Assembly: GCA_964434235.1 (NCBI GenBank)
Contig: CAYSUN010000004.1
Span: 1 to 41,247, forward strand
Length of the DNA stretch: 41,247 nucleotides
DNA from: an uncultured Gammaproteobacteria bacterium
Lineage (GTDB): Bacteria; Patescibacteriota; Patescibacteriia; UBA11705; JABHMO01
Reading direction: 5' to 3'
Position numbers and translations under genes: made by a program. Below, in pieces: positions 20,846 through 39,109 of this stretch. Each line of letters starts with the position of its first letter. Position 1 is the first letter of the stretch. A model generated the notes under the pieces. The model was not told where the DNA came from. It searched no databases and worked only from the letters and a program-made list of their open reading frames with translations.

Positions 20846-22264
20846 ATGTTTACCAAAAGTAAATATAAGATTATAGCCAGTGTCTTGTTGCTAATTTTTA
20901 CTTTAACTGGTTGTACTAAAGGTGGAACGACTGAAGCAAAAAGTGCTTATAAAGCTGAAGTTTTGAATTGGTGGAGTGTTTGGGATGATTATTCAGACGT
21001 TATTCCTTTGATTGATGCTTATCGAGCGCAACACCCAAATGTTCGAGTTGATTATAGAAAACTTCGTTATGAAGAATACGAAAAAGAATTAATAAACGCG
21101 CTAGCTGAAGATCGTGGACCGGATGTTTTTTCAATTCACAATACTTGGATGAAAAGATATGTAAATAAATTGTTGCCAGCTCCAGCCAGTGTTTCTTTGC
21201 CTATTAAATACACTACTGGTGGTATAAAAAAAGAAGAGGTCGTTGAATTTAGGACGAACAATTTACCATCTCCAGCGGTGGTTAGAAAAAACTTTTTAGA
21301 TGTAGTATCACCTGATGTTATTATGCTTGATGAAACTGGTGCAGAAGATACTTGGCGAGAAAAAGTTTGGGGCTTGCCAATGAGTATGGATACTTTGGTT
21401 ATGTTTTATAATAAAGATATTTTAAATAACGCAGGTATTGTTGAACCAGCGAAAAGTTGGACTGAATTTCAGGATCATGTTAAACGAATTACCAAGATTA
21501 GTAGTGAAACTGGTGAAATATTATTATCTGGCGGTGCAATTGGCACAGCTGATAACGTTGAAAGAAGTTTTGATATTTTGTCTTTATTAATGATGCAGAA
21601 TTTGACACCAATGACCAACCAAGCTGGCTACGCAACTTTTACAGAAGCTCCAAAAAATATTACTAATATTCAAACTCCTCCTGCCATTGGAGCAATTGAT
21701 TTTTATGTTCAGTTTGCTTCACCTTTGCACGAGATTTATACTTGGAACAATCAAATGCCAAATTCCATCGACGCTTTTATTGATGGTAAGGTTGCATATA
21801 TTTTTGGTTATTCATATTACAAAGATCGAATAATGGCCGAAGCGCCACAGTTAAATTGGAGTATTGCTTCAATGCCACAAGTTGGGGATCAACAAAAAGT
21901 TAATTATGCTAGTTATTGGGTACAAGGAGTTTCCAAAAAATCAAAAGTTCCTCAGTATGCTTGGGATTTTGTTAATTTTATAACGGCTGAAGCTAATGTT
22001 CCTGTTTATCTAAATAAAGCTGGAACAACAACTGCTCTTCGTTCAACAAAATTAATTAACGAACATCTAGCCAATGAAGCTTTAGCGGTTCAGGCTGAAC
22101 AGTTGTTAACAGCCAAAAGTTGGTATCGAGGGCAAAGTCCTTTGGCGGCCGAAGATATTTTCGCGACATTAATTAATAGTGTATTACAGGCAGATGTCGA
22201 AGTGGAGGATGCCCTAAAAAATTCAGCTAATCAAATAAATTACTCTATAAATAATTCTTTATGA
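20846..22264 (+). CDS. Lipoprotein, extracellular solute-binding protein (ABC-type sugar SBP-like)
   Basis: Lipobox LTGC. SBP family-1-like length and composition. Confidence 0.6.
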   Translation: MFTKSKYKIIASVLLLIFTLTGCTKGGTTEAKSAYKAEVLNWWSVWDDYSDVIPLIDAYRAQHPNVRVDYRKLRYEEYEKELINALAEDRGPDVFSIHNTWMKRYVNKLLPAPASVSLPIKYTTGGIKKEEVVEFRTNNLPSPAVVRKNFLDVVSPDVIMLDETGAEDTWREKVWGLPMSMDTLVMFYNKDILNNAGIVEPAKSWTEFQDHVKRITKISSETGEILLSGGAIGTADNVERSFDILSLLMMQNLTPMTNQAGYATFTEAPKNITNIQTPPAIGAIDFYVQFASPLHEIYTWNNQMPNSIDAFIDGKVAYIFGYSYYKDRIMAEAPQLNWSIASMPQVGDQQKVNYASYWVQGVSKKSKVPQYAWDFVNFITAEANVPVYLNKAGTTTALRSTKLINEHLANEALAVQAEQLLTAKSWYRGQSPLAAEDIFATLINSVLQADVEVEDALKNSANQINYSINNSL

Positions 22265-22626
22265 GAAAATATTTAATTATCACGATCGTAATCTTTTGGG
22301 GTGTACTTGGGGTGGCACAAAGCACTTTTGCTTTTCCTTCGATTGTGCCTGTAAATTGTCAAGGTAATGCAGAAGTTTCAGTGTGTAACTTAAGTGAAGT
22401 AGAATCAATGATCGGAACTGTTGCTCAAATTGTTTTGGGCTTGGCTGGTTCTGTTACATTGGCAGTATTTGTTGTGGCTGGTATTATGTATACAGCTTCT
22501 GGCGGAAATAAAAATATAATCGGCAAAGCAACGGACATGTTGAAAAATGCTTTTTTGGGATTAGTACTTATATTTTTAGCTGGAGTTATTGTAAAAACTT
22601 TATTAAGTGTCTTAAGTAAGTCTTAG
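22261..22626 (+). CDS. VirB2/TrbC-like (T4SS-type) pilin family protein, paralog 1 of 9
   Basis: Signal peptide, then a hydrophobic helix, the loop YTASGGNKN…, and a second hydrophobic helix. Confidence 0.5.
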   Translation: MRKYLIITIVIFWGVLGVAQSTFAFPSIVPVNCQGNAEVSVCNLSEVESMIGTVAQIVLGLAGSVTLAVFVVAGIMYTASGGNKNIIGKATDMLKNAFLGLVLIFLAGVIVKTLLSVLSKS

Positions 22627-22629
22627 CTT

Positions 22630-22992
22630 TTGTATATGAAAAAAATATTAATAATTACATTTTTAAGTCTATTGATTTTACCAACAATAGTGTTTGCGCA
22701 AGGAGCCGTGTCACAGGCAAAAGCGAAAATTACTTCTGTTATGCCAGGGGAACTAGTGAAAGATGCAGATGCAAATATAATTTTAGGAAATGCAATTAGT
22801 AAGGGGTTGGGGATAATCGGCAGTGTGGCTTTGGTTATTTTTATTGCAAGTGGTATAATATGGATGACCTCAGCTGGGAATGAGAAAAGAGTCAAGCTGG
22901 CTGAGCAAAGTTTAATTTGGGCAGCCTTGGGGTTGTTTGTTATATTTTTCAGTTATATTTTTGTTAATAATGTTATTGGAAAGTTGGGTTAA
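22630..22992 (+). CDS. VirB2/TrbC-like pilin paralog 2
   Basis: …IASGIIWMTSAGNEKRVKLAEQ… flanked by two hydrophobic helices. Confidence 0.5.
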   Translation: MYMKKILIITFLSLLILPTIVFAQGAVSQAKAKITSVMPGELVKDADANIILGNAISKGLGIIGSVALVIFIASGIIWMTSAGNEKRVKLAEQSLIWAALGLFVIFFSYIFVNNVIGKLG

Positions 22993-23038
22993 AAAAAATT
23001 AGAAATTTAAATATAAAAAATAAATAATTTTTACGAAC

Positions 23039-23437
23039 ATGAAGTTAAACACAAACAAAATCAAAGTGTTTGCAGCTTTATTCTTAGCTGTTTTTGCACT
23101 TTCGTTTCTAGCGCTTCCAGTTTTAGCACAAAACAATGATCCATTTGGAGTTACTGCTGTTGGTGGTAATTTAGGACTTGGTAATAAAGATTTAAGAGAA
23201 ACAATTGGTTCTATTATCAAGGCTGCTTTAGGCTTTCTTGGTGTAGTTGCTGTGGTTATTGTTTTGATCGGTGGTTTCAAATACATGACAGCTGGTGGTA
23301 GTGATGAAAAAGTTCAAGATGCTAGAAAATACATTGTTTCTGGTATTATTGGTCTTGCTATTGTTTTGAGCGCTTATGCTATTACAACCTTTGTTGTAAG
23401 TAATTTAATTAGTGCAACAAACGCTAATACTTTGTAA
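23039..23437 (+). CDS. VirB2/TrbC-like pilin paralog 3
   Basis: …LIGGFKYMTAGGSDEKVQDARKY…. Confidence 0.5.
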   Translation: MKLNTNKIKVFAALFLAVFALSFLALPVLAQNNDPFGVTAVGGNLGLGNKDLRETIGSIIKAALGFLGVVAVVIVLIGGFKYMTAGGSDEKVQDARKYIVSGIIGLAIVLSAYAITTFVVSNLISATNANTL

Positions 23438-23517
23438 TTTTTTTGAAGTGGGTAGTTTTACTGCCCCTTCTCATTAGCCAATAATTGTTAATAAAGTTTT
23501 GTTGGTTGATGAGAAGT

Positions 23518-23907
23518 ATGAAAAAGATTATTCCTTTTTTGATGGTAATTTTTATATTTTCTGTACTTGCTATTAGCGTACAGCCAGTTTTGGCTGGGGA
23601 CGCAAGCACAACCAGTTTTAAGGATGGACTTGAAAAAACAAACATTGAAGCAAAGTTAGATACTACTGGCACCGTAGAATCAAAGATTGGTAAAATTGCT
23701 GGTATTATTTTTGGCTTTGTTAGTATTGTTTTTCTGATTATGATTGTTTATGGTGGCATTATTTGGATGACTGCTTCAGGAACTGAAGCTAATGTCAAAA
23801 AAGCTAGGGCAACTTTGGTTCATGCTGCAATTGGTTTATTTGTGACGATGATCTCTTATCAAGTTGCTTCTTATGTAATAACGAAAATTGCAGAAACAAC
23901 TTCCTAA
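23518..23907 (+). CDS. VirB2/TrbC-like pilin paralog 4
   Basis: …VYGGIIWMTASGTEANVKKARAT… The start is taken at MKKIIPF. Confidence 0.5.
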   Translation: MKKIIPFLMVIFIFSVLAISVQPVLAGDASTTSFKDGLEKTNIEAKLDTTGTVESKIGKIAGIIFGFVSIVFLIMIVYGGIIWMTASGTEANVKKARATLVHAAIGLFVTMISYQVASYVITKIAETTS

Positions 23908-23913
23908 TTAAAT

Positions 23914-24306
23914 ATGAAAAATGTTTTTTTATTGTTAGTAGTTATAATGTTAATAGTTTTTAACTTTAGTCTTGCACTTGAGCCTGTTTTGGCTGATGGT
24001 GCAACTGACAAAGCTCAAGCTGGTTTAAAAGCCTCAGCTGATACAGCTGGGTTTTCTACAGCCAAAGCTGAACCAGCTGAAGTTATTGGAAAAGCCTTGA
24101 ACATTTTAATTTCTGTTTTAGGAATTATTTTTGTTATTTTGGTTGTTTATGGTGGTGTAACTTGGATGACCGCTACTGGTAATGCTGATCAAGTTAAAAA
24201 AGCTAGATCCATGATTATAGAAGGTGCACTTGGCATGGCTGTTACTTTGGCTTCCTATTCTTTGGCTTCTTATGTAGTAGAAAAAGCATCCTCAGCCACA
24301 CAATAG
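23914..24306 (+). CDS. VirB2/TrbC-like pilin paralog 5
   Basis: …VYGGVTWMTATGNADQVKKARSM…. Confidence 0.5.
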   Translation: MKNVFLLLVVIMLIVFNFSLALEPVLADGATDKAQAGLKASADTAGFSTAKAEPAEVIGKALNILISVLGIIFVILVVYGGVTWMTATGNADQVKKARSMIIEGALGMAVTLASYSLASYVVEKASSATQ

Positions 24307-24348
24307 TAATTTATCATTTAAACACTTAATCACTAAAACAAGAAATCT

Positions 24349-24393
24349 CCGACGTAAAGTACGGAGTCCGTATAGCCTATGGCTCATCGGACA
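24349..24393 (+). repeat. 45-nt hairpin-rich insertion element, copy 1 (tccgacgtaaagtacggag tccgtatagcc-tat-ggctcatcggac)
   Basis: Inserted into a repeat unit that is uninterrupted at 27826..27880. An inverted copy lies at 29425..29469. Confidence 0.75.
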
Positions 24394-24512
24394 ATAAAAC
24401 ATAAAAACAAGAAAACAAGGAACACAGAACACAGAGCAACCACTTAAGTAGGCTTGCACTTACTACTTAACACTTAATACTTTTTTCACTATTTACTTCT
24501 AACTTCTATATT

Positions 24513-24908
24513 ATGTATAATCTAATTTACAACCAAAACTTTAGACGGATTGCTGTAATTGTTGTGATGATTTGTATGGGATTTATTTTTTCAGCTAGTT
24601 ATGGTTTGGCTAGTCCAACAGAAGAATTAAAAAAAGTTGGGACTGGTATGAATATTACAGCGCCAAAACCAATGCCAGAAGTTATCGGACAAATTATCAA
24701 TATTATTTTAACAATATCTGGAATTATAATGGTGATTTTAGTAGTTTGGGGAGGATTTCAGTGGATGACAGCTGGTGGGAATGAAGATCAGGTCAAGAAA
24801 GCCAAGCAATTATTAATTAACGCCGTTATGGGGTTAGCTATAACTTTATCAGCTTATGCAATTGCCTATTTTGCTGTTGAACAATTAGACAAGGCAACAA
24901 CTACTTAG
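24513..24908 (+). CDS. VirB2/TrbC-like pilin paralog 6
   Basis: …VWGGFQWMTAGGNEDQVKKAKQLLINA…. Confidence 0.55.
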   Translation: MYNLIYNQNFRRIAVIVVMICMGFIFSASYGLASPTEELKKVGTGMNITAPKPMPEVIGQIINIILTISGIIMVILVVWGGFQWMTAGGNEDQVKKAKQLLINAVMGLAITLSAYAIAYFAVEQLDKATTT

Positions 24909-24934
24909 AAGAAATAAATAACTAAATAAATATT

Positions 24935-25339
24935 ATGAAAAAGATATTTGCGATTTTGGCAATTTTAAGCATAATGTTAGTTCCAATGTTAGTTTTTGCT
25001 CAGGGTACGACACCGACAGCTGTAGATTATACAAAGGGTGATCCCAAGGCTGCTTTAACTGATTTAAGGGGTAAATCAGGATATTCAGACAAGTCTGACA
25101 ATTTGGTTGGTGTTATTGGTAATGTCATAAAAATTTTATTAACAGCAGTGGGTATTATAGTAGTAGTTCTTGTTGTTTATGCTGGATTTTTGTGGATGAC
25201 AGCTGGTGGCAATGAAGATCAAGTTAAAAAAGCTAAACAATGGTTAATTAACGCAGTGATTGGCTTAGCCTTGATTATGGCAGCTTATGCAATCTCTGAT
25301 TTCGCTATAACTAATTTAACGACAGCCACAAAAGCCTAA
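24935..25339 (+). CDS. VirB2/TrbC-like pilin paralog 7
   Basis: …VYAGFLWMTAGGNEDQVKKAKQWLINAVIGLALIMAAYAIS…. Confidence 0.55.
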   Translation: MKKIFAILAILSIMLVPMLVFAQGTTPTAVDYTKGDPKAALTDLRGKSGYSDKSDNLVGVIGNVIKILLTAVGIIVVVLVVYAGFLWMTAGGNEDQVKKAKQWLINAVIGLALIMAAYAISDFAITNLTTATKA

Positions 25340-25364
25340 CTTAATTAATATCAGAAAAATAGGT

Positions 25365-25763
25365 ATGAAAAAATTAATTCCAGCTTTAACATTGTTTCTA
25401 GTTTTGTTTATGCCAATTGCTGTTGGAGCGCAGGATTTTTTAGGCGCTGATTACCAGGGTCAACAAACAACTGCTTTTGCTGATTTTAAAACAAAATCAG
25501 GCATGGATGGAAAAGAAAGCAGCTTAGTTGCGATTATAGGAAATGTTGTAAGAATAGTTCTAGTTTTGGTCGGAATAATTGTACTTGTGATTATTGTCTA
25601 TGCTGGTTTTTTGTGGATGACTGCTGGTGGTAATGAAGATCAAGTTAAAAAAGCTAAACAATGGTTAATTAACGCGGTAGTAGGTTTGGCCTTAATTATG
25701 GCAGCTTATGCAATTTCAAGTTTTGTAGTTACTAACTTGTCTTCAGCGACAACGATTAATTGA
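25365..25763 (+). CDS. VirB2/TrbC-like pilin paralog 8
   Basis: Its C-terminal ~80 aa are nearly identical to paralogs 7 and 9, while the N-terminal mature region differs. Confidence 0.55.
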   Translation: MKKLIPALTLFLVLFMPIAVGAQDFLGADYQGQQTTAFADFKTKSGMDGKESSLVAIIGNVVRIVLVLVGIIVLVIIVYAGFLWMTAGGNEDQVKKAKQWLINAVVGLALIMAAYAISSFVVTNLSSATTIN

Positions 25764-25792
25764 AGATTAATAACTAATATATAATAAAAATT

Positions 25793-26191
25793 ATGAAAAA
25801 ACTAATTCCAATTTTGGCACTTTTTTCTTTGCTATTATTCCCTGTGGCCACAATGGCGCAAGACATCTTACAATTAGGTTTGGATGATCAGACGGTTGAA
25901 GAAAATATGGATTATTTTGCTTCAGACTTCGGACAGGATACAGGTGGATCTGATTTGGTTGGGATAATCGGAAATATAGTACGAATCGTTTTGACTTTAT
26001 TGGGCGTTGTTGTACTTGTTATTATTGTTTATGCAGGTTTTTTGTGGATGACAGCTGGTGGTAATGAAGATCAAGTTAAGAAAGCTAAACAATGGCTAAT
26101 TAATGCGATAATAGGTTTAGCCTTAATTTTGGCGGCTTATGCAATTTCAAGTTTTGTAGTAACAAACCTTTCTTCTGCGACAACAATGTAA
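25793..26191 (+). CDS. VirB2/TrbC-like pilin paralog 9
   Basis: Same conserved C-terminal core with a divergent N-terminal region. Confidence 0.55.
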   Translation: MKKLIPILALFSLLLFPVATMAQDILQLGLDDQTVEENMDYFASDFGQDTGGSDLVGIIGNIVRIVLTLLGVVVLVIIVYAGFLWMTAGGNEDQVKKAKQWLINAIIGLALILAAYAISSFVVTNLSSATTM

Positions 26192-28909: not shown

Positions 28910-28987
28910 AAACACGTGTCCCCCGAAGTTTCAACACAGGTAGAAGAATACAAAAAAGCAAAAAAGCAAGAAAACAAGAAAGCAAAT

Positions 28988-29356
28988 ATGAATGATTATC
29001 AAAAAAGATTAAAAGGATTAATGGACGAGTATGTTCATTATGTCTATAAATTGACAAAAAAATTTCCGCGGGAAGAAATATATGGCTTAGTTTCACAGTT
29101 AAGAAGATCTGCAATTTCCATAATACTAAATTATATTGAAGGATACGCAAGAAGAAGAACGCTAGTTAGGTTTAATATGTTAGAAACGTCGTATGGTTCA
29201 TTTCAAGAAACTAAATATATAGTGCAATTTTCTTTAATTGAGGGTTATATTTCAAAAGAAGATTATTTAAATATAGAATTATTAGAAAAAGAAATTGGTG
29301 CTATGCTGTGGACCGAATTAACAAAATTAGAAGGCAGTATTAAAGCTGTAAAGTAA
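28988..29356 (+). CDS. Four-helix-bundle protein ('23S rRNA intervening-sequence protein' family)
   Basis: …EEIYGLVSQLRRSAISIILNYIEGYARR… is the family signature. About 122 aa from the ATG at 28988. Confidence 0.75.
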   Translation: MNDYQKRLKGLMDEYVHYVYKLTKKFPREEIYGLVSQLRRSAISIILNYIEGYARRRTLVRFNMLETSYGSFQETKYIVQFSLIEGYISKEDYLNIELLEKEIGAMLWTELTKLEGSIKAVK

Positions 29357-29424: not shown

Positions 29425-29469
29425 GATGAGCCATGGGCTATACGGACTCCGTACTTTACGTCGGAGATT
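29425..29469 (-). repeat. 45-nt hairpin-rich insertion element, copy 2 (inverted orientation, 1 mismatch located in a hairpin loop)
   Basis: Its reverse complement equals 24349..24393 except tat→cat in the loop of the agcc/ggct stem. Confidence 0.75.
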
Positions 29470-29498
29470 TATTGATTTTTTGTTTTATTGAAGTCTCT

Positions 29499-29996
29499 AT
29501 GTCTACCAAAAAAGTAATATTGGGCATTGATCCAGGCTATGGCATTACTGGTTATGGTGTTGTTAGTGTTGAAGGATCAAAAATAACTTGCCTTGATTAC
29601 GGTGTTATTACTACTCGGGCTGGGGATGATTTTGAACTTCGTCTCAAAGATTTGAATAAAGATTTGAAGTTAATCATTAAAAAATATAAACCAGACTTGG
29701 TTGGGGTAGAAGATCTTTTCTTTGCTAAAAATGTTAAAACTGCCATGAAGGTCAGTCACGCCCGTGGCGTAATTATTTTAACTGCAGTTCAGGCTAATGT
29801 GCCGATTGTTGAATTTACTCCCGTTCAAGTTAAGCAGGCGATTTCAGGCTATGGTAAGGCCGAGAAAGCACAAGTTCAGCAAATGGTAAAAACATTCTTG
29901 AACCTGAAACAAATACCAAAACCAGATGATGCGGCTGATGCCTTGGCTGTGGCAGTTTGTGCGGCTAATTCTTTTAAATTAAAAAGTAAAAATTAA
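29499..29996 (+). CDS. ruvC: Crossover junction endodeoxyribonuclease RuvC
   Basis: ILGIDPGYGITGYGVV… The catalytic D and E residues are conserved. The start is taken at MSTKK. Confidence 0.9.
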   Translation: MSTKKVILGIDPGYGITGYGVVSVEGSKITCLDYGVITTRAGDDFELRLKDLNKDLKLIIKKYKPDLVGVEDLFFAKNVKTAMKVSHARGVIILTAVQANVPIVEFTPVQVKQAISGYGKAEKAQVQQMVKTFLNLKQIPKPDDAADALAVAVCAANSFKLKSKN

Positions 29997-30135: not shown

Positions 30136-31677
30136 ATGAAAAAAATCATATTAGTATTATTAATTTTAGGCTTGTTTTGTCCTTTAGCTATTTTCGCGCA
30201 AGATGAAATAGACAAAACTCCACAAATTAAAGCCGTTGCAGGAGAAGATCGAAATATTGTTGTTGATCGGCAAGTTGCTTTTTCAGCTATAAGTTCAATT
30301 GTGAGCAATGTTCAAAATATAGAATATCATTGGGATTTTGGTGATGGGTATTGGGCTGATGGTAAAGATGTTACTCATACATATTTGGATTCTGGTGTTT
30401 ATCGGGTTATTTTGAAAGTTAGTGGAATGTTTGGGGCTGAGAAAATTACAAGTGAAGATGAAATTATTGTTCACGTTGATAAAGAAGTAATGATTTTATT
30501 AAGTGATTATAATCTTGGTGAAGATAAGCTGGCTTTTGTTAAAGCAACAGCGTCAACACAAGGTATTTTGTTGGTTAATTTTCAAACAACCAATGATTTG
30601 GATTACGTGGCAGAAAAAGATTTAGCCCAAAAATTACTAAAAAGTCGAGAAGATATTAAACAAGCCAGTTCTATAGTTATTTGGACAGCCAATAATACTG
30701 GTTTGAATTCTTTGTTAGAGGTTGCTCAAAACTTAAGTAAGAATCATAGCGAATTGGAAACTTTTGGTTTTTCTAGTAAACATTTTGTGGTTATCATAAA
30801 TCAAAATTTTTCAGCTACTGCTCGTTTAGCTCAAAGTGTATACAATTTATTATCACCTCAATTTGTAGTATTGACTAGAGAAAGCGCAGCCAATGATGTT
30901 TTTTTATCAGCTGATTTTACTAGACTTTTAAATCGGTTAAAAAATGGTGAGGCTGATTATCGTTTAGTTGGTTTACACACGCAAAGAGATGTTAATCGTT
31001 TGTCTTGGAATAATTTTATTTCATATTTTGTTAGCTACATGGTGGACAAGGGAGTGGCTTTAAATACTATTTATTTAATTTTAATTTTACCGATTATTGC
31101 TACAGTTATTTCTTTTTCTCGGCAGATTATTGGTTTCAATGCGCTTGGAATTTATATGCCATCGATTCTAGCTGTTTCTTTTTTAGTAACTGGTCTTAAG
31201 TATGGTATAGCTTTGTTTTTAATGACTTTAATTGTTGGCACCGTCGCTCGACTTGTTGCACGAAAAATACGACTTTCATATTTACCAAGAATGGCGATTG
31301 TTCTAAGTTTTGTCAGTTTTTCCATTTTTATTGCTTTTTTGGCGGGTGCATATTTGGACAAAACAGGCTTTTTAGAAATTTCTATTTTCCCAATACTAAT
31401 TATGGTTTTGTTAACTGAAAAGTTTATTTCTGTGCAAATTGAAAGAGGTAGCAAAAGCGCAGTTATTTTAGTTGTTGAAACATTGTTTCTTTCAATTATT
31501 TGTTATTGGCTAGCTAGCTGGCAAACCATGAGAACAATCGTTCTTGGTTATCCAGAATTTATTTTATTAACAATTATATTAAATATTCTAATCGGCAAGT
31601 GGGCAGGTCTTCGCTTGGTAGAATATTATCGTTTTAGAAAGGTAATTAAAAATGTTGAGTTGGCTACGAAAAAGTAA
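30136..31677 (+). CDS. Secreted PKD-domain protein fused to a C-terminal multi-TM (about 7 TM) membrane domain
   Basis: Signal peptide. YHWDFGDG…THTY…GVYRVILKV is a PKD motif. The C-terminal half has about 7 hydrophobic helices. It is the first gene of an ATP-grasp cluster. Confidence 0.6.
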   Translation: MKKIILVLLILGLFCPLAIFAQDEIDKTPQIKAVAGEDRNIVVDRQVAFSAISSIVSNVQNIEYHWDFGDGYWADGKDVTHTYLDSGVYRVILKVSGMFGAEKITSEDEIIVHVDKEVMILLSDYNLGEDKLAFVKATASTQGILLVNFQTTNDLDYVAEKDLAQKLLKSREDIKQASSIVIWTANNTGLNSLLEVAQNLSKNHSELETFGFSSKHFVVIINQNFSATARLAQSVYNLLSPQFVVLTRESAANDVFLSADFTRLLNRLKNGEADYRLVGLHTQRDVNRLSWNNFISYFVSYMVDKGVALNTIYLILILPIIATVISFSRQIIGFNALGIYMPSILAVSFLVTGLKYGIALFLMTLIVGTVARLVARKIRLSYLPRMAIVLSFVSFSIFIAFLAGAYLDKTGFLEISIFPILIMVLLTEKFISVQIERGSKSAVILVVETLFLSIICYWLASWQTMRTIVLGYPEFILLTIILNILIGKWAGLRLVEYYRFRKVIKNVELATKK

Positions 31678-33049
31678 ACAAGTTTTGGGCATGAATGCTC
31701 GAAATTTGACATTTATCAGACCAGGGGCAACAAAAAATAGAGTTGACCTAGTTGATGATAAATTAAAAACAAAAAAACTTTTAGAAAAGCATGATTTACC
31801 AACTCCGAAATTATTGGCTGTGATTCGTAGTAGGAAAGAATTTTATAAATTTGATTGGACCAGTTTACCAAAAAGTTTTGTTTTGAAACCCAACCGTGGT
31901 TTAGGCGGAGAGGGTATTATTGTTACATTCGGAAAAAAGAAAAATGGTCGTTGGGTTTTGCCAAATGAGAAAGATGCGTCTTTGCAAGATATTATTTTGC
32001 GCGTGTCAAATATTTTGGATGGCGATTACTCAAAGACCAATGTCCCTGATGCTGCTTTTTTTGAAGAAAGATTAAAAATCCATCCAGCTTTTAAGTTATA
32101 TAGTTATAAAGGAATTCCTGATGTTAGAATAATTATTTACAATAATGTTCCAATCATGGCCATGTTGCGTTTACCAACCAAAGCTTCACGAGGAAAAGCA
32201 AATTTGCACCAAGGTGGTATTTGTGTAGGAATTGATATTTCGACTGGGACAACAACACATGCTATTTTATACAACAGAATGATTGAAACTTTGCCGGACA
32301 TTAAGTTGCCATTGCGTGGAATTAAGATTCCAAATTGGGAAGAGGTTTTAGAATTAGCAGTCAAGGCTGCAGTTGCTTGTGGGCTTTCCTACACCGGAAT
32401 TGATATTGCTATTGATCGAGAAAAAGGGCCAATTATTTTTGAAATTAACGCTCATCCAGGTCTTTCAATCCAAATTGCTAATTTAGCCTCGCTCAAAGAT
32501 CGCTTACTTCGAGTTGATGGTTTGAAAATTAAAACAGTAAAAAAAGGTATAAAAGTTGCCAAAGAATTGTTTGGTGGAGAGATTGAAGATGAGATTGAAG
32601 AAATTACTGGAAAAAAGGTTTTGGGTATTATTAATAAAATACAAATAAAAGATAAAAGCGGAGAATGGATTGAGTGCATAGCCAAGTTAGATACTGGTGC
32701 GGGCATTACTTCAATTGACGAAGATTTTGCTCGACGCTTAGGTTATGGCGAAGCGATTGAGCATTATAATAGTTTTAATATAAAAAGAGTTTTAACCAAG
32801 CAAGAATTAGATGAATTAAGCCGGCAGGAAACTTGGAAAAAACTTGAAGCTCATGAAGATATTATTGCCGTGGCTAAAACTTATAGTAGTCATGGGGCAT
32901 CTTACCGAATGGAGATCCCACTAAAAATAAAACTCTCAGAAGTAGAAATAAGTTCTAACGCTTCAGTTATCATCAGGGAAAATTTGAAATATCCTGTTAT
33001 AATAGGTAGGAGAGATCTTAATAAGTTTTTAATCGACCCAACTAAGTAA
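31652..33049 (+). CDS. RimK-like ATP-grasp amidoligase (alpha-L-glutamate-ligase-like) fused to a C-terminal retropepsin-like aspartic protease domain
   Basis: VLKPNRGLGGEGI…ANLHQGGICVGID…IIFEINAHPG are ATP-grasp motifs. AKLDTGAGITSID is a D-T-G-A aspartyl-protease motif. Overlaps the preceding gene by 26 nt. Confidence 0.7.
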   Translation: MLSWLRKSKQVLGMNARNLTFIRPGATKNRVDLVDDKLKTKKLLEKHDLPTPKLLAVIRSRKEFYKFDWTSLPKSFVLKPNRGLGGEGIIVTFGKKKNGRWVLPNEKDASLQDIILRVSNILDGDYSKTNVPDAAFFEERLKIHPAFKLYSYKGIPDVRIIIYNNVPIMAMLRLPTKASRGKANLHQGGICVGIDISTGTTTHAILYNRMIETLPDIKLPLRGIKIPNWEEVLELAVKAAVACGLSYTGIDIAIDREKGPIIFEINAHPGLSIQIANLASLKDRLLRVDGLKIKTVKKGIKVAKELFGGEIEDEIEEITGKKVLGIINKIQIKDKSGEWIECIAKLDTGAGITSIDEDFARRLGYGEAIEHYNSFNIKRVLTKQELDELSRQETWKKLEAHEDIIAVAKTYSSHGASYRMEIPLKIKLSEVEISSNASVIIRENLKYPVIIGRRDLNKFLIDPTK

Positions 33050-33109
33050 GTTAAAAGTTTATTAAGCTAACTGCATAGTTATCAACAATAGTTGAAGGTT
33101 CACAAAGTT

Positions 33110-33976
33110 ATGAGAATATTAATTATCGGACCGAAATCAGAAGAAAACATTAGCTTAGTTAATGCCGGTCAAAAAAGAAATCATCAAGTAAAATTAGTTT
33201 CTTTGCATCAGATATCGCTTTTAGTCCAAGCTAATAAAATGAAGGCATATGTTAGTGGACAAGAACTAGCTGATTATGATGTTTGTCTTTTTCGGGGCAT
33301 TTCTCCGTACTTTGCCAAGGCGAAAACTGTGGCTAATTTTCTGAAATTACGCGGAACAGAGGTGTTTGATAGAAAAATTTATAGTAAGGCTTTTGGCTAT
33401 GGTAAAATGTTCATGACTTTTGAGTTTTTTCAAAAAGGTTTGCCATGTATTGATACTTTCCATTTTTCAACCTTTGAAGAGTTAAATAAATATTTAGTAA
33501 AAATACCTAGGCCAGTGTTGATTAAAGATATTGCTGGCATGCATAGCCGAAATATTTATAGTTTTCAAACTAAAAAAGGACTGGAGCAATTTTTTCTCAA
33601 AAGAAAGAAAAAAGTAAAGCAGTTTTTAATACAAAAAAAGTTAAATGCAAATTATTATTATAGAGTTTTGGTTGTGGGTGATAAGGTTTTAGGTTCTATG
33701 AAAAGGATGAGTTATTTTAATCCGCAAAGGAAATCTACCCCATTAGCTAAGCGTTCGGTTAGAGTTGAAAAAAATAAGGAAATAGAAAGTTTGGCTCTTC
33801 AGGCAGCGAGAGCGACTCATACTGACATTGCTGGAGTTGATATTATTTACGATGGAGACAACCCAAAGATTCAAGAAGTTAATCGTTCACCAAAGTTTGG
33901 ACGTTTTACAGAGGTTATGAATGTTGACGTTGCTCAGGAAATAATTAAGTATCTAGAAAAATTTAATAAAATTTAA
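33110..33976 (+). CDS. RimK-like ATP-grasp ligase (second)
   Basis: RVLVVGDKV…DIAGVDIIYDG…IQEVNRSP. Confidence 0.7.
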   Translation: MRILIIGPKSEENISLVNAGQKRNHQVKLVSLHQISLLVQANKMKAYVSGQELADYDVCLFRGISPYFAKAKTVANFLKLRGTEVFDRKIYSKAFGYGKMFMTFEFFQKGLPCIDTFHFSTFEELNKYLVKIPRPVLIKDIAGMHSRNIYSFQTKKGLEQFFLKRKKKVKQFLIQKKLNANYYYRVLVVGDKVLGSMKRMSYFNPQRKSTPLAKRSVRVEKNKEIESLALQAARATHTDIAGVDIIYDGDNPKIQEVNRSPKFGRFTEVMNVDVAQEIIKYLEKFNKI

Positions 33977-33997
33977 TTGATAAATAAGATATTTTTT

Positions 33998-34969
33998 ATG
34001 AAAAATGTTGTTGTAATATATAATAGCGATAATTGGGACAAAGAGTACCCAATTTCCGATAAAAAATATTTAAACGTTGCGGAAGATATTACAGAAGTTG
34101 CTAGACGAGAAAAAATTGAGATATATCATGCCTCGATCAAATGGTACAAGGAACCATTTTTCAAAAAAGCTTTTATTTATCGTGATGGTAAATGGCAAAA
34201 AGAAAAAAACATAAAACCAAATTTAATTTGGTTGAAAATGAAAGTAACGCCAAGGACTAATTTTGCTTTGGAAGTAATTAATTCCAAGGTTCCATTCTTA
34301 AATCCTTTTCCGTTTGAAAGGCTAAACGACAAGTCGCTTTCTTCAAAAATCTTTTATCGTTGGTCGCCAAAAACAGTCAAAATTAGCACTTATCAAGAGC
34401 TAAAACAATCATTTGATGTTTTGAAATCTAGTCGAATTGTTATAAAACCATTAAAGGGTAGTGGCGGTAAGGGAGTTCAAATAATTTCTAACAAAGACTT
34501 ACATAAATTGCAGAGAAAAGAGATTAATTTTGTGGCTCAAAAATTTATTGATTCAAGCAAGGGAATTCCGGGCTTATGTAAGGGGTATCATGATTTACGA
34601 TTAGTTTTTTTGAATAATAAATTAGCTTATTCGTATATTCGAGTTCCAGCTCGGGGTAAATTGTTGGCCAACCTAGCACAGGGCGGAAAAATGTTTTTAG
34701 TTACTAAGAATCAGATACCTCGTAATGTTATAAAAATGGCTAAAGAAATTGTAGCTATTATTAGTCATTACAATGCTAGTTATTATACCTTAGATTTTTT
34801 ATTGGACAAAGAGGGTCGGCCGTATCTTTTGGAAATGAATACCATGCCAGGAGCTTTTTTCAATAAAGAAAACAGAAATGAACAATTAAGTTTTTTCAGA
34901 AATTTAGTAAAAACTATCAAGGAAAGAATAAAAATAAAGGAAAAAGAAAACAAAATTAATAATATATGA
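33998..34969 (+). CDS. RimK-like ATP-grasp ligase (third)
   Basis: VIKPLKGSGGKGVQII…LANLAQGGKMF…LLEMNTMPG. Confidence 0.65.
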   Translation: MKNVVVIYNSDNWDKEYPISDKKYLNVAEDITEVARREKIEIYHASIKWYKEPFFKKAFIYRDGKWQKEKNIKPNLIWLKMKVTPRTNFALEVINSKVPFLNPFPFERLNDKSLSSKIFYRWSPKTVKISTYQELKQSFDVLKSSRIVIKPLKGSGGKGVQIISNKDLHKLQRKEINFVAQKFIDSSKGIPGLCKGYHDLRLVFLNNKLAYSYIRVPARGKLLANLAQGGKMFLVTKNQIPRNVIKMAKEIVAIISHYNASYYTLDFLLDKEGRPYLLEMNTMPGAFFNKENRNEQLSFFRNLVKTIKERIKIKEKENKINNI

Positions 34970-34970
34970 T

Positions 34971-37835
34971 ATGCCAATTTCACAACTAAGAGTAGTTCAT
35001 CATCGTCCAGATGGTGGTAATTCAAAAAAATTTTCAAAGAAGAAGTGGAAGAAAAAATTTAAGTTTTTATTTAAAAAAGCTATTTATTTAGGTTTAATTT
35101 TGTTTTTTATATTTGTTATCTATTTAATTGGAGCTTTTGCTTGGTATTCAAGAAGTTTACCAGATCCAAACAAAATTCTAGAAAGAAATTTAGCTCAAAG
35201 CACAAAGATTTATGATCGTAACGAAGAGGAAATACTTTATGATGTGTATGGAGCGGAAAAAAGAACTTTAGTAAAATTGGAAGAAATACCTTTGTATGTA
35301 CAGCAAGCAACAATTTCGGCTGAAGATAAGCATTTTTATGAGCATAATGGATTTAATTTATTGGCCATGCTTAAGGGGACTATTATTGATCCACTTCTTG
35401 GTAGACGTGCTCGCGGAGGATCGACTTTAACTCAGCAGTTTGTAAAAAATGCAATTTTAACCAATGAAAGAAAAATTTCTAGAAAAATAAAAGAATTTAT
35501 TTTGTCTTATAAAATTGAAAAAGCTTTTAGTAAAGATGAAATTTTACAAATGTATTTGAATGAAATTCCTTATGGTTCAGTAGCTTATGGTATTCAATCA
35601 GCCAGTCAAACGTTTTTGAATAAAAATGTTCAAGATTTAACGCTTGGGGAATCGGCCGTACTAGTTGCTTTACCCCAAGCTCCTACTTATTATTCACCAT
35701 TTGGTTCTCACGTTGATGAACTGTTTGTTCGTCAGGGTTATGTTCTTGATCAAATGGTTAAGAATGGATACATAACAGAGGAACAGGCCAAGTCTGCTTC
35801 TGAAGAGGATATTAAATTTGCTCTAAAAAAACAATCTATAACTGCTCCACATTTTGTTATGTACATAAAGGAGCTTTTGAGTGAAAAATTGGGGGATGAT
35901 TTAGTTGAAACTGGTGGCTTGAAAGTGGTTACCACTTTAGATTTAGAGATGCAAAAAGTAGCAGAAGAAGCAGTGGTTACGGGAGTAGAAGGTAAGGGTG
36001 AATATTATAAATTTCATAATGCAGCCTTGGTGGCAAATGATCCAAAGACTGGACAGATTTTAGCTATGGTTGGTTCAAAAGATTATTTTGATTTGGAAAA
36101 TGACGGAAATGTAAATGTAACTTTGAGTTTACGACAACCGGGGTCATCAATGAAACCATTGATTTATTTAGCAGCTTTTCAATTGGGCTATACACCAAAC
36201 ACAATACTTTATGATGTTGAAACAACATTTAAAACTGATACTAAAGATTATCATCCGTTAAATTACGATTTAGCTGAACGTGGGCCAGTCACAATTAGAA
36301 AAGCTTTACAAGGCTCTCTCAATATTCCAGCTGTAAAAGCAATTTATCTTGTTGGGGTACAAAAAGTTATTGATATGCTTGAACTTTTTGGTTATACCAC
36401 TTTTGGTGATCGATCTCGCTTTGGTTTATCTCTTGTTCTTGGTGGTGGTGAAGTTCAACTTTTGGAACACGTAGGAGCTTATGGAACTTTAGCTAATCAA
36501 GGTGTTTATCATGAGCCCGTTGGCATACTTCGAGTGGAAGATAGTAAGGGCAATGTTTTGCTAGAGTACAAAGAAAAGAAAAGAAAAGTTATGGATCCAG
36601 ATTTAGTTAATACTTTAACAAATGTTTTATCTGACGATGCTTCCCGCGCTTATGTTTTTGGTGAAGGTGGTTATTTAACATTACCAGGAAGATCTGTAGC
36701 TGCGAAAACTGGAACAACAAATGATTATCGGGATGCTTGGACTATCGGTTATACACCATCTTTAGTTGCTGGTGTTTGGGTTGGTAATAATGATAATTCA
36801 TCAATGCGTAGTGGCGCAGCTGGTGGTGTGGTGGCAGCTCCGATTTGGCAGAATTTTATGAAAAATGCGTTGAAGGATAAACCGGTTGAGGGATTTCCAG
36901 CCGTTGAAATAGAAAAAACAGGTAAACCTATTTTAGACGGAGAAATTTCAGGAGAATCAGTTGTACGAATAGATAAATTTTCTGGTAAGTTAGCAACAGA
37001 AAGTACACCAGAGAGTGCAGTTGAAGAAAAGATTTTTCGGGATGCTCATTCTATTTTACATTATGTTTATAAAGATGATCCACGAGGAGGAGTGCCAGAA
37101 GATCCGAATACAGCCGACCCAGCTTATCAATATTGGGAAGTAGGTGTGCAAGAATGGTTGAATAAACAAGCAGAAAATAATTCAGGAAATTCGGAGTTTG
37201 TATTGGAAGCTCCGCCAACTGAATATGACGATGTGCATAAGGAAGAAAATAAACCAACTATTTTTATAACAAATCCTAGTAATAATATGACAATTAATTC
37301 TGGGATTTTAACGGCTACAATTAATGTTTCTGCTCCAAGGGGCGTGCGTCGAGTTGAATATTATTTAGATAATGCTTTAATCCAAACAAAAACAACAACT
37401 CCGTTCAGTTTGAACTATTCATTAAGTAGTTATTTTGTTAAAGGTTACCACACACTTCGAGCAGTAGCCTTTGACGATGTTGACAACAGTAATGAAGCGC
37501 AAGTAGAAGTTAATGTTTTATTAGACGTACAAGAACCAAATGTTGTTTGGCAAAATTTATCTAATGGCCAAGTAATCAACAGCGGAGATATGCCAATTCA
37601 AGTTAGGTTTCAATTAACAGATCTTTTAGCTAGTAGAAAAGTAAATATCATGCAAAGGCAAGTTTCTTCAGGTCAAATAAATATGGTTTCCAGTTTAATC
37701 TTACCTCAAATAACGGATGTAAGTTTTTCTTTGGAGGAGATTTTTGAAAAAGGTGAATACGAACTTTTTGCAGAAATTGTAGACCCAAATGGTAGTAAAT
37801 ATAATTCTGATGGTGTTAATTTCTTTGTTCAGTAA
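34971..37835 (+). CDS. Class A penicillin-binding protein (PBP1A: glycosyltransferase GT51 plus transpeptidase) with a C-terminal Ig-like extension
   Basis: ISAEDKHFYEHNGFN and RGGSTLTQQ are GT51 motifs. SSMKP, SLN and KTGT are transpeptidase motifs. Confidence 0.9.
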   Translation: MPISQLRVVHHRPDGGNSKKFSKKKWKKKFKFLFKKAIYLGLILFFIFVIYLIGAFAWYSRSLPDPNKILERNLAQSTKIYDRNEEEILYDVYGAEKRTLVKLEEIPLYVQQATISAEDKHFYEHNGFNLLAMLKGTIIDPLLGRRARGGSTLTQQFVKNAILTNERKISRKIKEFILSYKIEKAFSKDEILQMYLNEIPYGSVAYGIQSASQTFLNKNVQDLTLGESAVLVALPQAPTYYSPFGSHVDELFVRQGYVLDQMVKNGYITEEQAKSASEEDIKFALKKQSITAPHFVMYIKELLSEKLGDDLVETGGLKVVTTLDLEMQKVAEEAVVTGVEGKGEYYKFHNAALVANDPKTGQILAMVGSKDYFDLENDGNVNVTLSLRQPGSSMKPLIYLAAFQLGYTPNTILYDVETTFKTDTKDYHPLNYDLAERGPVTIRKALQGSLNIPAVKAIYLVGVQKVIDMLELFGYTTFGDRSRFGLSLVLGGGEVQLLEHVGAYGTLANQGVYHEPVGILRVEDSKGNVLLEYKEKKRKVMDPDLVNTLTNVLSDDASRAYVFGEGGYLTLPGRSVAAKTGTTNDYRDAWTIGYTPSLVAGVWVGNNDNSSMRSGAAGGVVAAPIWQNFMKNALKDKPVEGFPAVEIEKTGKPILDGEISGESVVRIDKFSGKLATESTPESAVEEKIFRDAHSILHYVYKDDPRGGVPEDPNTADPAYQYWEVGVQEWLNKQAENNSGNSEFVLEAPPTEYDDVHKEENKPTIFITNPSNNMTINSGILTATINVSAPRGVRRVEYYLDNALIQTKTTTPFSLNYSLSSYFVKGYHTLRAVAFDDVDNSNEAQVEVNVLLDVQEPNVVWQNLSNGQVINSGDMPIQVRFQLTDLLASRKVNIMQRQVSSGQINMVSSLILPQITDVSFSLEEIFEKGEYELFAEIVDPNGSKYNSDGVNFFVQ

Positions 37836-37872
37836 AAGTATTTTTCGTATATAGAAATTTTTGAAAAATAAA

Positions 37873-37905
37873 AGCCCCTTACTTTTTGAAAGTAGGGGGT
37901 TTTGG
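37873..37905. terminator. Bidirectional hairpin terminator (ccccttac-tttttgaaa-gtaggggg) between the convergent PBP and 37927..38454 genes
   Basis: Read directly. Confidence 0.55.
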
Positions 37906-37926
37906 TCTATGTTTTTTAACTTTTCT

Positions 37927-38454
37927 TTAGTGAGATCTTGCCATAATGAACAGGCTTGGTCGTTTCCACTTGAAGTGAAGGATGCTTTTCGGTTTGAGAT
38001 ACCTATTTTGACGCAAGAACCATTCGAGAGCGTCTTCAATCACCTGACGATTGAGGTCACTCGCTTTCGTGATAATGTTCGGGCAACCGTTCTTCAAATC
38101 CTGATCATCCAGAATCACGTAGTCAGCCCCAGCTTCGAGTTCAGCCTTGGCAGATTCATAAGTCTGAATGGTCCAGGAGTAGCTGTCAATCATAGACTGG
38201 TGGTGAACTTCGAACTTGATGTCACAGAATTCCACCAATTCACTTTCTTCGGTCTGAATCTTTGCCAGATGTTCGTCTCGCATCTCTTTGTTGTGTGCCA
38301 GGTCATTTTCCAGGTGGGTATAGCTGATAATGCAAGGTCCGTAACGCCTAGTCTTGCGACGATCCTTAAAAATCAACCAAATATCTTCCCAGGGAGTAGT
38401 GTGCTGTGCATCTATGGCGCAGTAGGACATAGAAATAACACGAATAGATTTCAT
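37927..38454 (-). CDS. Hypothetical 175-aa protein. Possibly a 2H-phosphoesterase-superfamily (LigT/ThpR-like) enzyme, based on two H-x-T/S-x motifs.
   Basis: Strong RBS AAGGAGGG. Motifs QHTT (about residue 18) and HHQS (about residue 94), LigT-like size, GC-rich. The overlapping + strand ORF 37861..38484 is rejected. Confidence 0.35.
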   Translation of the reverse strand: MKSIRVISMSYCAIDAQHTTPWEDIWLIFKDRRKTRRYGPCIISYTHLENDLAHNKEMRDEHLAKIQTEESELVEFCDIKFEVHHQSMIDSYSWTIQTYESAKAELEAGADYVILDDQDLKNGCPNIITKASDLNRQVIEDALEWFLRQNRYLKPKSILHFKWKRPSLFIMARSH

Positions 38455-38475
38455 AGTTTCCCTCCTTATGGTTAT

Positions 38476-38520
38476 TTACCATAAGAAAGAGTCGTAGATG
38501 TAGATAAAGATTTCTTTCAT
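38476..38520 (-). CDS. Putative 14-aa leader peptide MKEIFIYIYDSFLW. Its stop lies inside a hairpin that also contains the RBS of the downstream gene.
   Basis: RBS AAGGAGA 6 nt before the ATG. The palindrome ccttatggt-tattt-accataagg (38465..38487) covers the leader stop (tggtaa) and the main-gene RBS. Confidence 0.4.
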   Translation of the reverse strand: MKEIFIYIYDSFLW

Positions 38521-38707: not shown

Positions 38708-39109
38708 ATGGAAGAAAAAACAACTATTAAATCATTCCAAGATTTTCGAGCTTATCAAAATTTGTATAAGGCAATGCTTATTGTCCACAAGGAAATAGTA
38801 ATTAAATTACCCAGTGATGAAAAATTTGACTTAGTTTCTCAAATGAAAAGAGCGTCAAAAGCTGGGCCAGCCTTATTAGCGGAAGGTTTTTCAAAAAGAT
38901 ACCAAGAAAAAAATTGGGGAAAATATCTGAACGATACACTTGGTGAAGCTAATGAAATGATACATCATTTATCTGTTTGTATTGATATATATGCTTCTTG
39001 TGTTGATATTAATCAATGCAAAGAAGTAATTGATATATATGATCTAGCCTGTAGACAAACAACAAAACTCAAACAAGCGTGGGTTAATTTTCACAAGAAG
39101 AACGATTAA
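38708..39109 (+). CDS. Four-helix-bundle protein ('23S rRNA IVS protein' family), third intact copy
   Basis: …FDLVSQMKRASKAGPALLAEGFSKR… Flanked by imperfect inverted repeats (38666..38711 versus 39121..39260). Confidence 0.75.
   Translation: MEEKTTIKSFQDFRAYQNLYKAMLIVHKEIVIKLPSDEKFDLVSQMKRASKAGPALLAEGFSKRYQEKNWGKYLNDTLGEANEMIHHLSVCIDIYASCVDINQCKEVIDIYDLACRQTTKLKQAWVNFHKKND

Follow-up and report, generated by a model that had tools for sequence, protein, structure and literature searches.

Genes and features of the locus

The window analysed here is a 41,247-nucleotide (nt) stretch of contig CAYSUN010000004.1, deposited under the name of an uncultured gammaproteobacterium. It is AT-rich (GC content ~32%) and resembles a contig of the Patescibacteria, or Candidate Phyla Radiation (CPR), its nearest gene relatives being annotated as Kuenenbacteria and Falkowbacteria. 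CPR bacteria are not known to possess an outer membrane. Our subject is a block of four genes, here called g1 to g4, which encode a membrane protein, a fusion of an ATP-grasp ligase with a retropepsin-like protease, and two further ATP-grasp ligases (Table 1). An initial annotation of this DNA had described four co-directional genes lying between ruvC and a penicillin-binding protein (PBP) gene, and this is indeed the arrangement: all of the open reading frames (ORFs) lie on the + strand, the upstream neighbour (29433..29996) has a Pfam match to RuvC (E=4.8e-54) and the downstream neighbour matches the domains of a class A PBP.

Two of the gene boundaries proposed in that annotation had to be corrected. 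The 26-nt overlap of g1 and g2, which is conserved in the closest loci of the clade, and the start of the PBP gene close to the end of g4 were both borne out, with a single nucleotide separating the g4 stop codon (34967-34969) from the PBP start codon. The start of g1 yields a signal peptide beginning MKK, as in its homologues. For g3 and g4, public gene calls and homologue alignments led us to choose the ATG codons listed in Table 1 in place of the upstream TTG codons at 33092 and 33977, respectively. As the start of g4 thereby moves to 33998, g3 and g4 do not abut, as had been thought, but are separated by ~21 nt. Gaps between genes inside the cluster do not exceed ~60 nt and the only strong hairpin found from g1 to the end of the PBP gene is a terminator-like structure 3' of the latter. 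The PBP gene is probably part of one transcription unit with g1-g4 in this genome.

Table 1. Coordinates of the four-gene block, its encoded domains and its downstream flank
Feature	Position	Strand	Description
g1	30136..31677	+	513-residue membrane protein; ATG at 30136
PKD domain of g1	30226..30480	+	Predicted to be extracytoplasmic
Alpha/beta ectodomain of g1	30481..30990	+	Unnamed, flavodoxin/CheY-like; occupies the place of the RloB inactive transglutaminase domain
7TM_transglut domain of g1	31051..31677	+	Includes conserved basic C-terminal tail; N-terminus outside, C-terminus inside (predicted)
g2	31652..33049	+	465-residue fusion of RloC-type ATP-grasp ligase and retropepsin-like protease
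ATP-grasp ligase domain of g2	31652..32572	+	Residues 1-307; KPNRGLGGEGI, ANLHQGG and E-x-N motifs canonical
Acidic linker of g2	32573..32614	+	GGEIEDEIEEITGK; conserved; low pLDDT in model
Retropepsin-like protease domain of g2	32615..33049	+	RloA/RimB-type; invariant DTGAG, K345, R419 and R442
g3	33110..33976	+	288-residue RimK-like ATP-grasp protein with pre-ATP-grasp domain; alternative TTG start at 33092
g4	33998..34969	+	323-residue ligase of ATPgrasp_ST / YheCD / GSH-S type; alternative TTG start at 33977
Class A PBP	34971..37835	+	Pfam: Transgly (E=2.7e-55), Transpeptidase (E=5.3e-25), Big_7
Terminator-like hairpin	37871..37903	+	15-pair stem followed by T run; 3' of PBP gene

An association between ATP-grasp enzymes, a seven-transmembrane (7TM) protein bearing a transglutaminase domain that is inactive and a peptidase was reportedly predicted in 2009 by Iyer, Abhiman, Burroughs and Aravind, and is one that we take to correspond to the Pfam families PF14397, PF14402, PF14400 and PF05618. 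These families recur in the block, and so does the logic predicted for them, in which an amidoligase works at the membrane together with a peptidase, but PF14400 is absent. Whilst the initial annotation regarded the trio as experimentally uncharacterised, this no longer holds. NCBIfam models named RloB, RloA1 and RloA3 led us to work on the rloABC operon of Pseudomonas aeruginosa, whose products are RloA, a retropepsin that is secreted, RloB, a 7TM protein of the inactive transglutaminase kind, and RloC, an ATP-grasp ligase; the system is described from P. fluorescens as well as P. aeruginosa (Lormand et al., mBio 2025, PMC12239564). RloA cleaves runs of at least eight glutamates, with residues K46, R114 and R137 binding poly-glutamate (PMC12239564). 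RimB, likewise now characterised, is a poly-glutamate endopeptidase that stimulates synthesis of poly-alpha-glutamate by RimK, and a natural RimB-RimK hybrid (RimBK) is proteolytically active (Little et al., JBC 2025, PMC11957791). As a comparison operon we used a canonical rlo copy from a Legionella adelaidensis plasmid (L084), in which the gene order is protease, inactive transglutaminase protein, ligase. In addition, a scan of one genome per species yielded 439 relatives of the g2 fusion protein, of which the best 80 loci were examined; all locus counts given below come from these.

The g1 protein comprises a signal peptide (residues 1-22), a PKD domain (31-115), an alpha/beta domain (116-285), seven transmembrane (TM) segments (~309-488) and a basic cytoplasmic tail (489-513). 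The first of these domains is matched by the Pfam models PKD_4 (E=6.9e-17) and PKD, and the membrane domain by 7TM_transglut (PF14402; E=1.6e-28, 100 bits against a cut-off of 25). With no unrelated transporter family among the matches, the proposal of a PKD domain fused to a membrane domain of about seven helices stands, and structure comparison of the 7TM domain gave no match to any known transporter. An AlphaFold2 (AF2) model built from 28 homologues, with a mean predicted local distance difference test score (pLDDT) of 82, comprises the signal peptide, a PKD beta-sandwich, a domain of beta-alpha repeats and a helical membrane domain. From hydropathy and the positive-inside pattern, seven TM segments are predicted, with the N-terminus outside and the basic tail inside. 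Invariant polar residues of the 7TM domain include R329, R372, E428, E448, E474, N483, R493, E496 and R499, with E448, E474 and N483 placed within the membrane by the predicted topology.

It is ahead of the membrane domain that g1 departs from RloB. Residues 116-305 gave no match in a Pfam search and PF14400, the inactive transglutaminase family, has no match in g1 at E<=0.1. When a profile of the g1 family was compared with the 508-residue inactive-transglutaminase protein of Legionella, g1 residues 306-505 aligned to residues 305-505 (hhalign, 99.4%, E=5e-21) with no alignment to the N-terminal 300 residues. Similarly, g1 scored 78.8 bits against the NCBIfam RloB model NF052267, for which the cut-off is 900, and its C-terminal part alone was matched. 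We considered whether an inactive transglutaminase might be hidden in residues 116-305 and rejected this: there is no Pfam match, no alignment of the g1 profile to the RloB-like protein over this part, a flavodoxin-like fold and no papain-like matches. When 1.84 billion cluster representatives were searched exhaustively with HMMER, the alpha/beta domain was found in 76 proteins only, essentially all of them ~500-545 residues long with the domain at the same position. On this basis we regard this domain of ~190 residues as an orphan that is particular to the present architecture.

The N-terminal half of g2 is, on the basis of sequence comparison, clearly a ligase of the RloC type and not of the RimK type. 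Residues 7-290 match TIGR02291 ('alpha-L-glutamate ligase-like') over model positions 8-291 of 317 (E=6.5e-83), and there is a strong match to ATPgrasp_ST (PF14397; E=1.5e-66, 225 bits against a cut-off of 31). Residues 3-307 align to the whole of the Legionella RloC-like ligase (39% identity, E=4e-68), the C-terminus of which falls exactly at the start of the g2 linker. Against the RimK family model TIGR00768, g2 scores 55 bits (cut-off 143), and Rimk_N is not matched. Motif counts across 81 orthologues show the ATP-grasp catalytic motifs to be intact. Foldseek searches with the N-terminal half returned RimK, cyanophycin synthetase (E ~1e-5) and ArgX/LysX, and g2 also gave weak matches to PsnB and the MdnB-type macrocyclase AMdnB.

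Ligase and protease are joined by a conserved acidic linker with the consensus FGGEIEEExEExSGKK, in which G308, G309, E312, E314, E316 and G320 are invariant and 6 of 12 residues are acidic across orthologues. Its length is also fixed, the FGG-to-DTGA distance being 44 residues in 72 of the 80 loci. The idea that the linker acts as an autoprocessing site or pseudo-substrate was set aside, as its glutamates alternate, whereas RloA needs at least eight in succession; we retain it as a mere idea.

The first ligase had been proposed to carry a DTGA module with a retropepsin fold, and this assignment is supported. Although the Zn_protease (Pfam) and RloA3 (NCBIfam) matches at the C-terminus of g2 are weak (E=7e-4 for Zn_protease), a profile of the C-terminal 148 residues, built from 19 orthologues, matched the PDB entries for RloA (9g58, E=5.4e-9) and RloA2 (9g59, E=1.9e-7) as well as 2pma, covering the whole domain. 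These matches came with the protease domain queried alone; full-length g2 gave weak RimK matches only. The same profile aligned to the small RloA-like protein of Legionella (hhalign, 96.3%). In the AF2 model the protease half has a pLDDT of ~90, and Foldseek matched it with probability 1.0 both to RloA (9g58) and to the retroviral-protease domain of Ddi1. R419 and R442 lie 23 residues apart, as do R114 and R137 in RloA, and K345, R419 and R442 together show the spacing of RloA K46, R114 and R137.

The g2 protein has no signal peptide and no TM segment between ligase and protease, and the protease domain is without cysteine in 70 of 81 orthologues. These features, together with the fusion to a cytoplasmic ligase, indicate that the protease is cytoplasmic, a location like that of RimB. 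The fusion family is large and well conserved: the top 120 database matches are all ~465 residues in length and all come from Patescibacteria.

Accessory ligases and gene order in related loci

The initial annotation described all three ATP-grasp proteins as RimK-like and the ligase as triplicated. Three ATP-grasp genes there are, but RimK-like applies to g3 alone, g2 being of the RloC type and g4 most like YheCD and ATPgrasp_ST. The g3 protein has Pfam matches above cut-off to RimK (E=1.8e-17) and Rimk_N, matches Pseudomonas RimK (7qyr) with E=1.5e-15 and scores 109 bits against TIGR00768, where the cut-off is 143. Its glycine-rich loop, GMHSRN (GMH(S/G)RN in the family alignment), is non-canonical yet conserved within the clade, which also has RKxxPLxKRS in place of the RSNLHRGG loop whilst retaining the Mg-binding E-x-N motif. 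In Moranbacteria, g3-like genes retain canonical motifs. The g4 protein belongs to another ATP-grasp family, with weak scores to each of ATPgrasp_ST, YheCD and GSH-S and with canonical motifs (the lysine, GSGGKG, ANLAQGG and E-x-N). As the g2, g3 and g4 ligases fall in separate clusters even at BLAST E<1e-20, they represent three distinct ATP-grasp families and not a recent triplication.

Across the related loci the core of the block is invariant. All 80 have the 7TM gene as the immediate upstream neighbour of the fusion gene, so that the arrangement is not due to chance. The ectodomain, by comparison, is restricted to 14 loci, in a clade of Kuenen-, Falkow- and Kerfeldbacteria type; the remaining 66 encode a bare 7TM protein of ~218 residues, and in one close relative (73% identity in g2) the signal peptide is followed almost at once by the first TM segment. 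It had been suggested that in this block the transglutaminase domain was replaced by PKD. Its loss is supported by the lack of any PF14400 match; a simple swap is not, given that g1 carries an alpha/beta domain in addition to PKD and that most relatives carry neither.

The wider gene order is also conserved, as a co-directional array of yebC, ruvC, the 7TM gene, the ligase gene, a cassette of ATP-grasp genes and the PBP gene. Of the 80 loci, 71 carry ruvC upstream in the same orientation; a class A PBP gene follows downstream on the same strand in 60 and is inverted in three. The other 17 loci comprise ten with less than 7 kb of downstream sequence, six with 8 kb yet no PBP gene, and one (L032) in which the PBP gene is upstream. 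The PBP gene as a pointer to an envelope role, suggested at the outset, thus retains its conserved linkage but loses much of its weight as evidence: since ruvC is equally tightly linked, adjacency to the PBP gene is weak functional evidence on its own and may reflect inherited gene order. We had also considered whether a cassette-PBP gap tighter than that between ruvC and the 7TM gene might count as operon evidence; with medians of 95 and 66 nt, respectively, it is not tighter.

What lies between the fusion gene and the PBP gene is more variable. The ATP-grasp genes are clustered there and not dispersed in related genomes, but their number ranges from none (6 loci) through one (14), two (25) and three (13) to four (2), and they belong to several families that differ even among close relatives. 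As a result, the stepwise peptide assembly suggested for the three ligases remains speculation. ATP-grasp proteins account for 111 of the 155 ORFs called in this slot. Among the others are metallopeptidases of the MATCAP type, a large protein with an HExxH motif, a Mur-ligase-like protein, DUF3541, YdjC and glycosyltransferases. The MATCAP-family members (PF08014, tubulin tyrosine carboxypeptidase-like) and the HExxH protein, which has ~620 residues and no Pfam match, occur in some of the related loci (L035:5362-6696, L064:7432-8835; L059:10411-12339 and others); together with the ATP-grasp ligases they could form add-and-remove pairs for C-terminal residues. A protein of ~400-426 residues with Mur ligase M and C domains lies amid accessory ATP-grasp genes in three loci (L025:12221-13423, L052:11220-12434 and L083:9430-10710), a pairing that recalls cyanophycin synthetase. 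In L033 (4241-5719, + strand) the normal fusion gene is followed directly by a second, different ATP-grasp-retropepsin fusion of 492 residues without the FGG acidic linker, suggesting that fusion of ligase and protease arose more than once.

Several records in the survey, from 'binchicken' or SRP co-assemblies, bear a typical CPR gene block under the names 'uncultured Gammaproteobacteria' or 'Bdellovibrionales' (L004, L007, L008, L013, L014 and others). These are 48-77% identical to loci from named Patescibacteria, and the organism names look wrong.

A CPR relative of the Rlo system

How does the block compare with systems of known or partly known function? The closest is RloABC. All three of its core modules are present here, with the 7TM gene immediately upstream of, and overlapping, the ligase gene, and the DTGA retropepsin of g2 retains the poly-glutamate-binding residues of RloA. 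There are also clear differences. The Pseudomonas protease is a protein of its own, which has a signal peptide and a disulfide and is secreted, whereas here the protease makes up the C-terminal part of a fusion with the ligase. The inactive transglutaminase of RloB is missing, with PKD and the orphan alpha/beta domain in its stead and no ectodomain at all in most CPR relatives, additional ATP-grasp genes come next in a cassette of variable content, and the host is a CPR bacterium.

With RimBK the block shares the physical coupling of a cytoplasmic retropepsin to an ATP-grasp ligase that polymerises glutamate (presumably so in g2), so that there is an active precedent for a single-polypeptide fusion, although the protease is N-terminal in RimBK and C-terminal in g2. 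Unlike RimK, the g2 ligase is of the RloC type and has no pre-ATP-grasp domain. Nor do the Rim systems have a membrane partner, and here only g3, with its altered substrate loops, is RimK-like; rpsF, the gene for ribosomal protein S6, is not within the window. Cyanophycin synthetase CphA1 contains an ATP-grasp module structurally like the g2 ligase and makes an amino-acid polymer non-ribosomally, but differs in having a second, Mur-ligase-like active site and a primer-binding domain and in lacking both a 7TM partner and a retropepsin. Finally, HM2192 of Shewanella vesiculosa is a homologous type of membrane protein (an inactive transglutaminase with seven TM helices), disruption of which has an envelope phenotype, with overproduction of membrane vesicles and altered vesicle size (PMC12096838). 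Unlike g1, HM2192 comes from a Gram-negative organism and has the transglutaminase as its ectodomain; the phenotype reported is that of the membrane protein only.

Taken together, we put at about 55% the probability that the cluster is a CPR version of an Rlo-type membrane-coupled amidoligase system, with chemistry and envelope role included. Its identity as a variant of the Rlo type is well supported, by the domain identities, intact catalytic motifs, homology to the rlo operon, conserved adjacency and predicted topology computed here. More tentative, taken jointly, are the proposed chemistry, export by the 7TM protein and a connection with the wall. Poly-glutamate chemistry, the interplay of ligase and protease in RimK/RimB and RloA, and the way in which RloA depends genetically on RloB and RloC are carried over from the literature by analogy; the substrate, any part played by the 7TM protein in export, what g3 and g4 do and the connection with the PBP we infer.

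By analogy with these systems, the most likely function of the cluster would be the ATP-dependent synthesis and trimming of an acidic peptide of poly-glutamate type at the membrane, with a role in the envelope. In the cytoplasm, the RloC-type domain of g2 would use ATP to add amino acids, most probably L-glutamate, in alpha-linkage, giving oligo- or poly-alpha-glutamate or a glutamate tail on an acceptor. The retropepsin domain presumably dimerises upon oligomerisation of the ligase and would cut acidic runs, thereby limiting the length of the product or releasing it; the ligase may, moreover, be stimulated by it in the way that RimB stimulates RimK. g1, which has conserved intramembrane glutamates and asparagine and a basic tail, would dock g2 at the membrane and pass the product, or a signal, across, whilst the PKD and alpha/beta ectodomain, gained in this clade, probably binds an envelope ligand or component. 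In this scheme g3 and g4 would belong to a fast-changing cassette of accessory ligases that lengthen the product, diversify it or modify different acceptors, and co-transcription with the class A PBP gene may point to a role in the envelope or in peptidoglycan.

A number of observations weigh against this interpretation. The g2 ligase scores 278 bits against TIGR02291, below the equivalog cut-off of 314, and g2 as a single sequence reaches 19.9 bits against the Pfam Zn_protease cut-off of 27. The AF2 model of g2 is poor in the ligase half (overall pLDDT 64.7). RloC-type ligases and the 7TM protein are known from genetics only, in Pseudomonas included, and as the Pseudomonas protease is secreted and the one here cytoplasmic, the logic of the pathway may differ. 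The altered glycine-rich and RSNLHRGG loops of g3 may mean that it has another substrate or is inactive. As regards the neighbourhood, the six loci with 8 kb of downstream sequence contain no PBP gene in that stretch, six loci with the PBP gene downstream have no accessory ligase, and the median gap of 66 nt between ruvC and the 7TM gene, which sometimes overlap, is set against 95 nt between cassette and PBP gene.

The variability of the cassette also lends itself to a different explanation, namely that the locus is composite: g1 and g2 alone would form a system, whilst g3 (a RimK-like enzyme whose target might be, say, a carrier protein or ribosomal protein S6) and likewise g4 would be independent housekeeping or accessory ligases that merely share the co-directional block, much as ruvC and the PBP gene do. 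That the accessory ligases come and go, changing family even among close relatives and being dispensed with in six PBP-bearing loci, is what would be expected of such passengers, as is the character of g3 as a full-length RimK relative with a pre-ATP-grasp domain and the equal linkage of ruvC and the PBP gene. Yet the strong enrichment of ATP-grasp genes in the slot is hard to square with chance placement, MATCAP-like peptide-trimming enzymes and a Mur-ligase-like protein share that slot, and within the window spacing is tight and free of internal terminators. We consider a composite locus unlikely, if still a serious contender.

A further question is whether anything crosses the membrane. The 7TM protein might instead be a receptor, its ectodomain reading an envelope cue and switching a cytoplasmic ligase-protease that acts on a cytoplasmic target. 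An interchangeable or absent ectodomain on a conserved 7TM core and basic tail would fit a sensor, the g2 protease is cytoplasmic, like RimB acting on ribosomal protein S6, and the 7TM domain has no structural match to known transporters. However, most relatives lack an ectodomain and would have little to sense with, and conserved intramembrane Glu, Asn and Arg residues suit a polar pathway. The genetics of Pseudomonas point the same way. A mutant without any of the three RloA proteases is defective in survival under hypo-osmotic conditions, in cell shape, in the formation of biofilms and in tolerance of beta-lactams, and these defects of the triple mutant are suppressed by deletion of rloB or rloC (PMC12239564). 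Since RloA acts outside the cytoplasm, this suppression implies that some product of RloB and RloC reaches the periplasm. A sensor therefore seems rather unlikely to us.

The osmotic phenotype raises the possibility that the product has no connection with the wall and is a free cytoplasmic polymer (poly-alpha-glutamate or cyanophycin-like) serving as osmoprotectant or nitrogen store, to be mobilised by the protease. Glutamate is an osmolyte, the ligase half of g2 is like RimK and the ATP-grasp module of cyanophycin synthetase, and a few related loci have a Mur-ligase-like gene, as in cyanophycin synthetase. Domain searches (Pfam/NCBIfam) nonetheless found no Mur-ligase-like module in g1-g4, and none is present in the window, and a storage polymer leaves both the invariant 7TM pairing and the ectodomain unexplained; we regard it as quite improbable. 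That the ATP-grasp enzymes cyclise a small precursor peptide, as in the CPR graspetide loci reported with ATP-grasp enzymes and zincin peptidases (PMC8939145), is largely refuted despite the weak Foldseek matches to PsnB and AMdnB, the short intergenic gaps leaving no room for a precursor gene, no small ORF fitting, the best matches being to RimK, RloC and YheCD-type and not microviridin-type ligases, and leader-peptide and SPASM genes being absent. An anti-phage defence system was also considered and rejected, as there were no PADLOC matches.

The Rlo-type reading can be taken further, though in an extended form that we think improbable. The block might build an anionic peptide without the ribosome, one that varies between lineages and has, perhaps, a backbone of poly-alpha-glutamate to which the accessory ligases add extensions or caps, with the protease setting its length, the 7TM protein exporting it and the peptide displayed on, or attached to, the CPR wall. 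If true, the wall would be decorated in a manner new to bacteria of this kind and comparable in function to teichoic acids or capsule, as a new type of decoration, and the cassette would diversify the surface of an episymbiont. Even short of that, a variable ATP-grasp cassette may diversify an envelope peptide in episymbiotic bacteria.

Much of the groundwork for the Rlo-type reading is already known: prediction of the trio reportedly goes back to 2009 and its genetic characterisation to 2025, and fusion of ligase and protease has a precedent. Absent from the literature searched is the combination of features in this CPR-wide variant, that is, a reversed fusion of RloC type, loss or replacement of the transglutaminase, an orphan alpha/beta domain, a cassette of ATP-grasp genes and ruvC and PBP neighbours; nor did we find there a ligase-peptidase fusion with PBP and ruvC linkage across CPR genomes. 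As Proteobacteria make up 96% of the RloB matches reported, the CPR loci extend the range of the Rlo system well beyond that group, and they show the transglutaminase ectodomain to be dispensable for core function. The two-gene CPR core, often with a bare 7TM protein, offers a simpler system for reconstitution and for working out the molecular job of Rlo. The PBP neighbourhood in most of the 80 genomes adds independent, though weak, comparative support for the peptidoglycan link proposed in Pseudomonas.

Other features of the window

The PBP itself has an unusually long, Lys-rich cytoplasmic tail of ~35-40 residues ahead of its TM anchor (34971..35150) and a C-terminal extension of ~300 residues that contains the Big_7 immunoglobulin-like domain. 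Just past its terminator, at 37861..38484, long overlapping ORFs are found on both strands (207 residues on the + strand and 175 on the - strand) with no Rfam match; an Rfam scan identified tRNAs only and no other RNA genes.

Two + strand ORFs (28916..29356 and 38708..39109) encode four-helix-bundle proteins of the 23S_rRNA_IVP / bAvd type, the first of which sits between yebC and ruvC. A bAvd-type ORF is also present in L005, downstream of the fusion gene. No template/variable repeat pair of a diversity-generating retroelement was found near the second of these ORFs, where there is only a 50-nt pair (39143/39225) that is 80% identical.

Further upstream, nine tandem ORFs of 120-140 residues (22261..26191, + strand) all match T4SS_pilin / TrbC-VirB2 pilin (PF18895) and make up an array of VirB2-like pilin paralogues, which is preceded by a gene for an SBP_bac_1 solute-binding protein (20846..22264).

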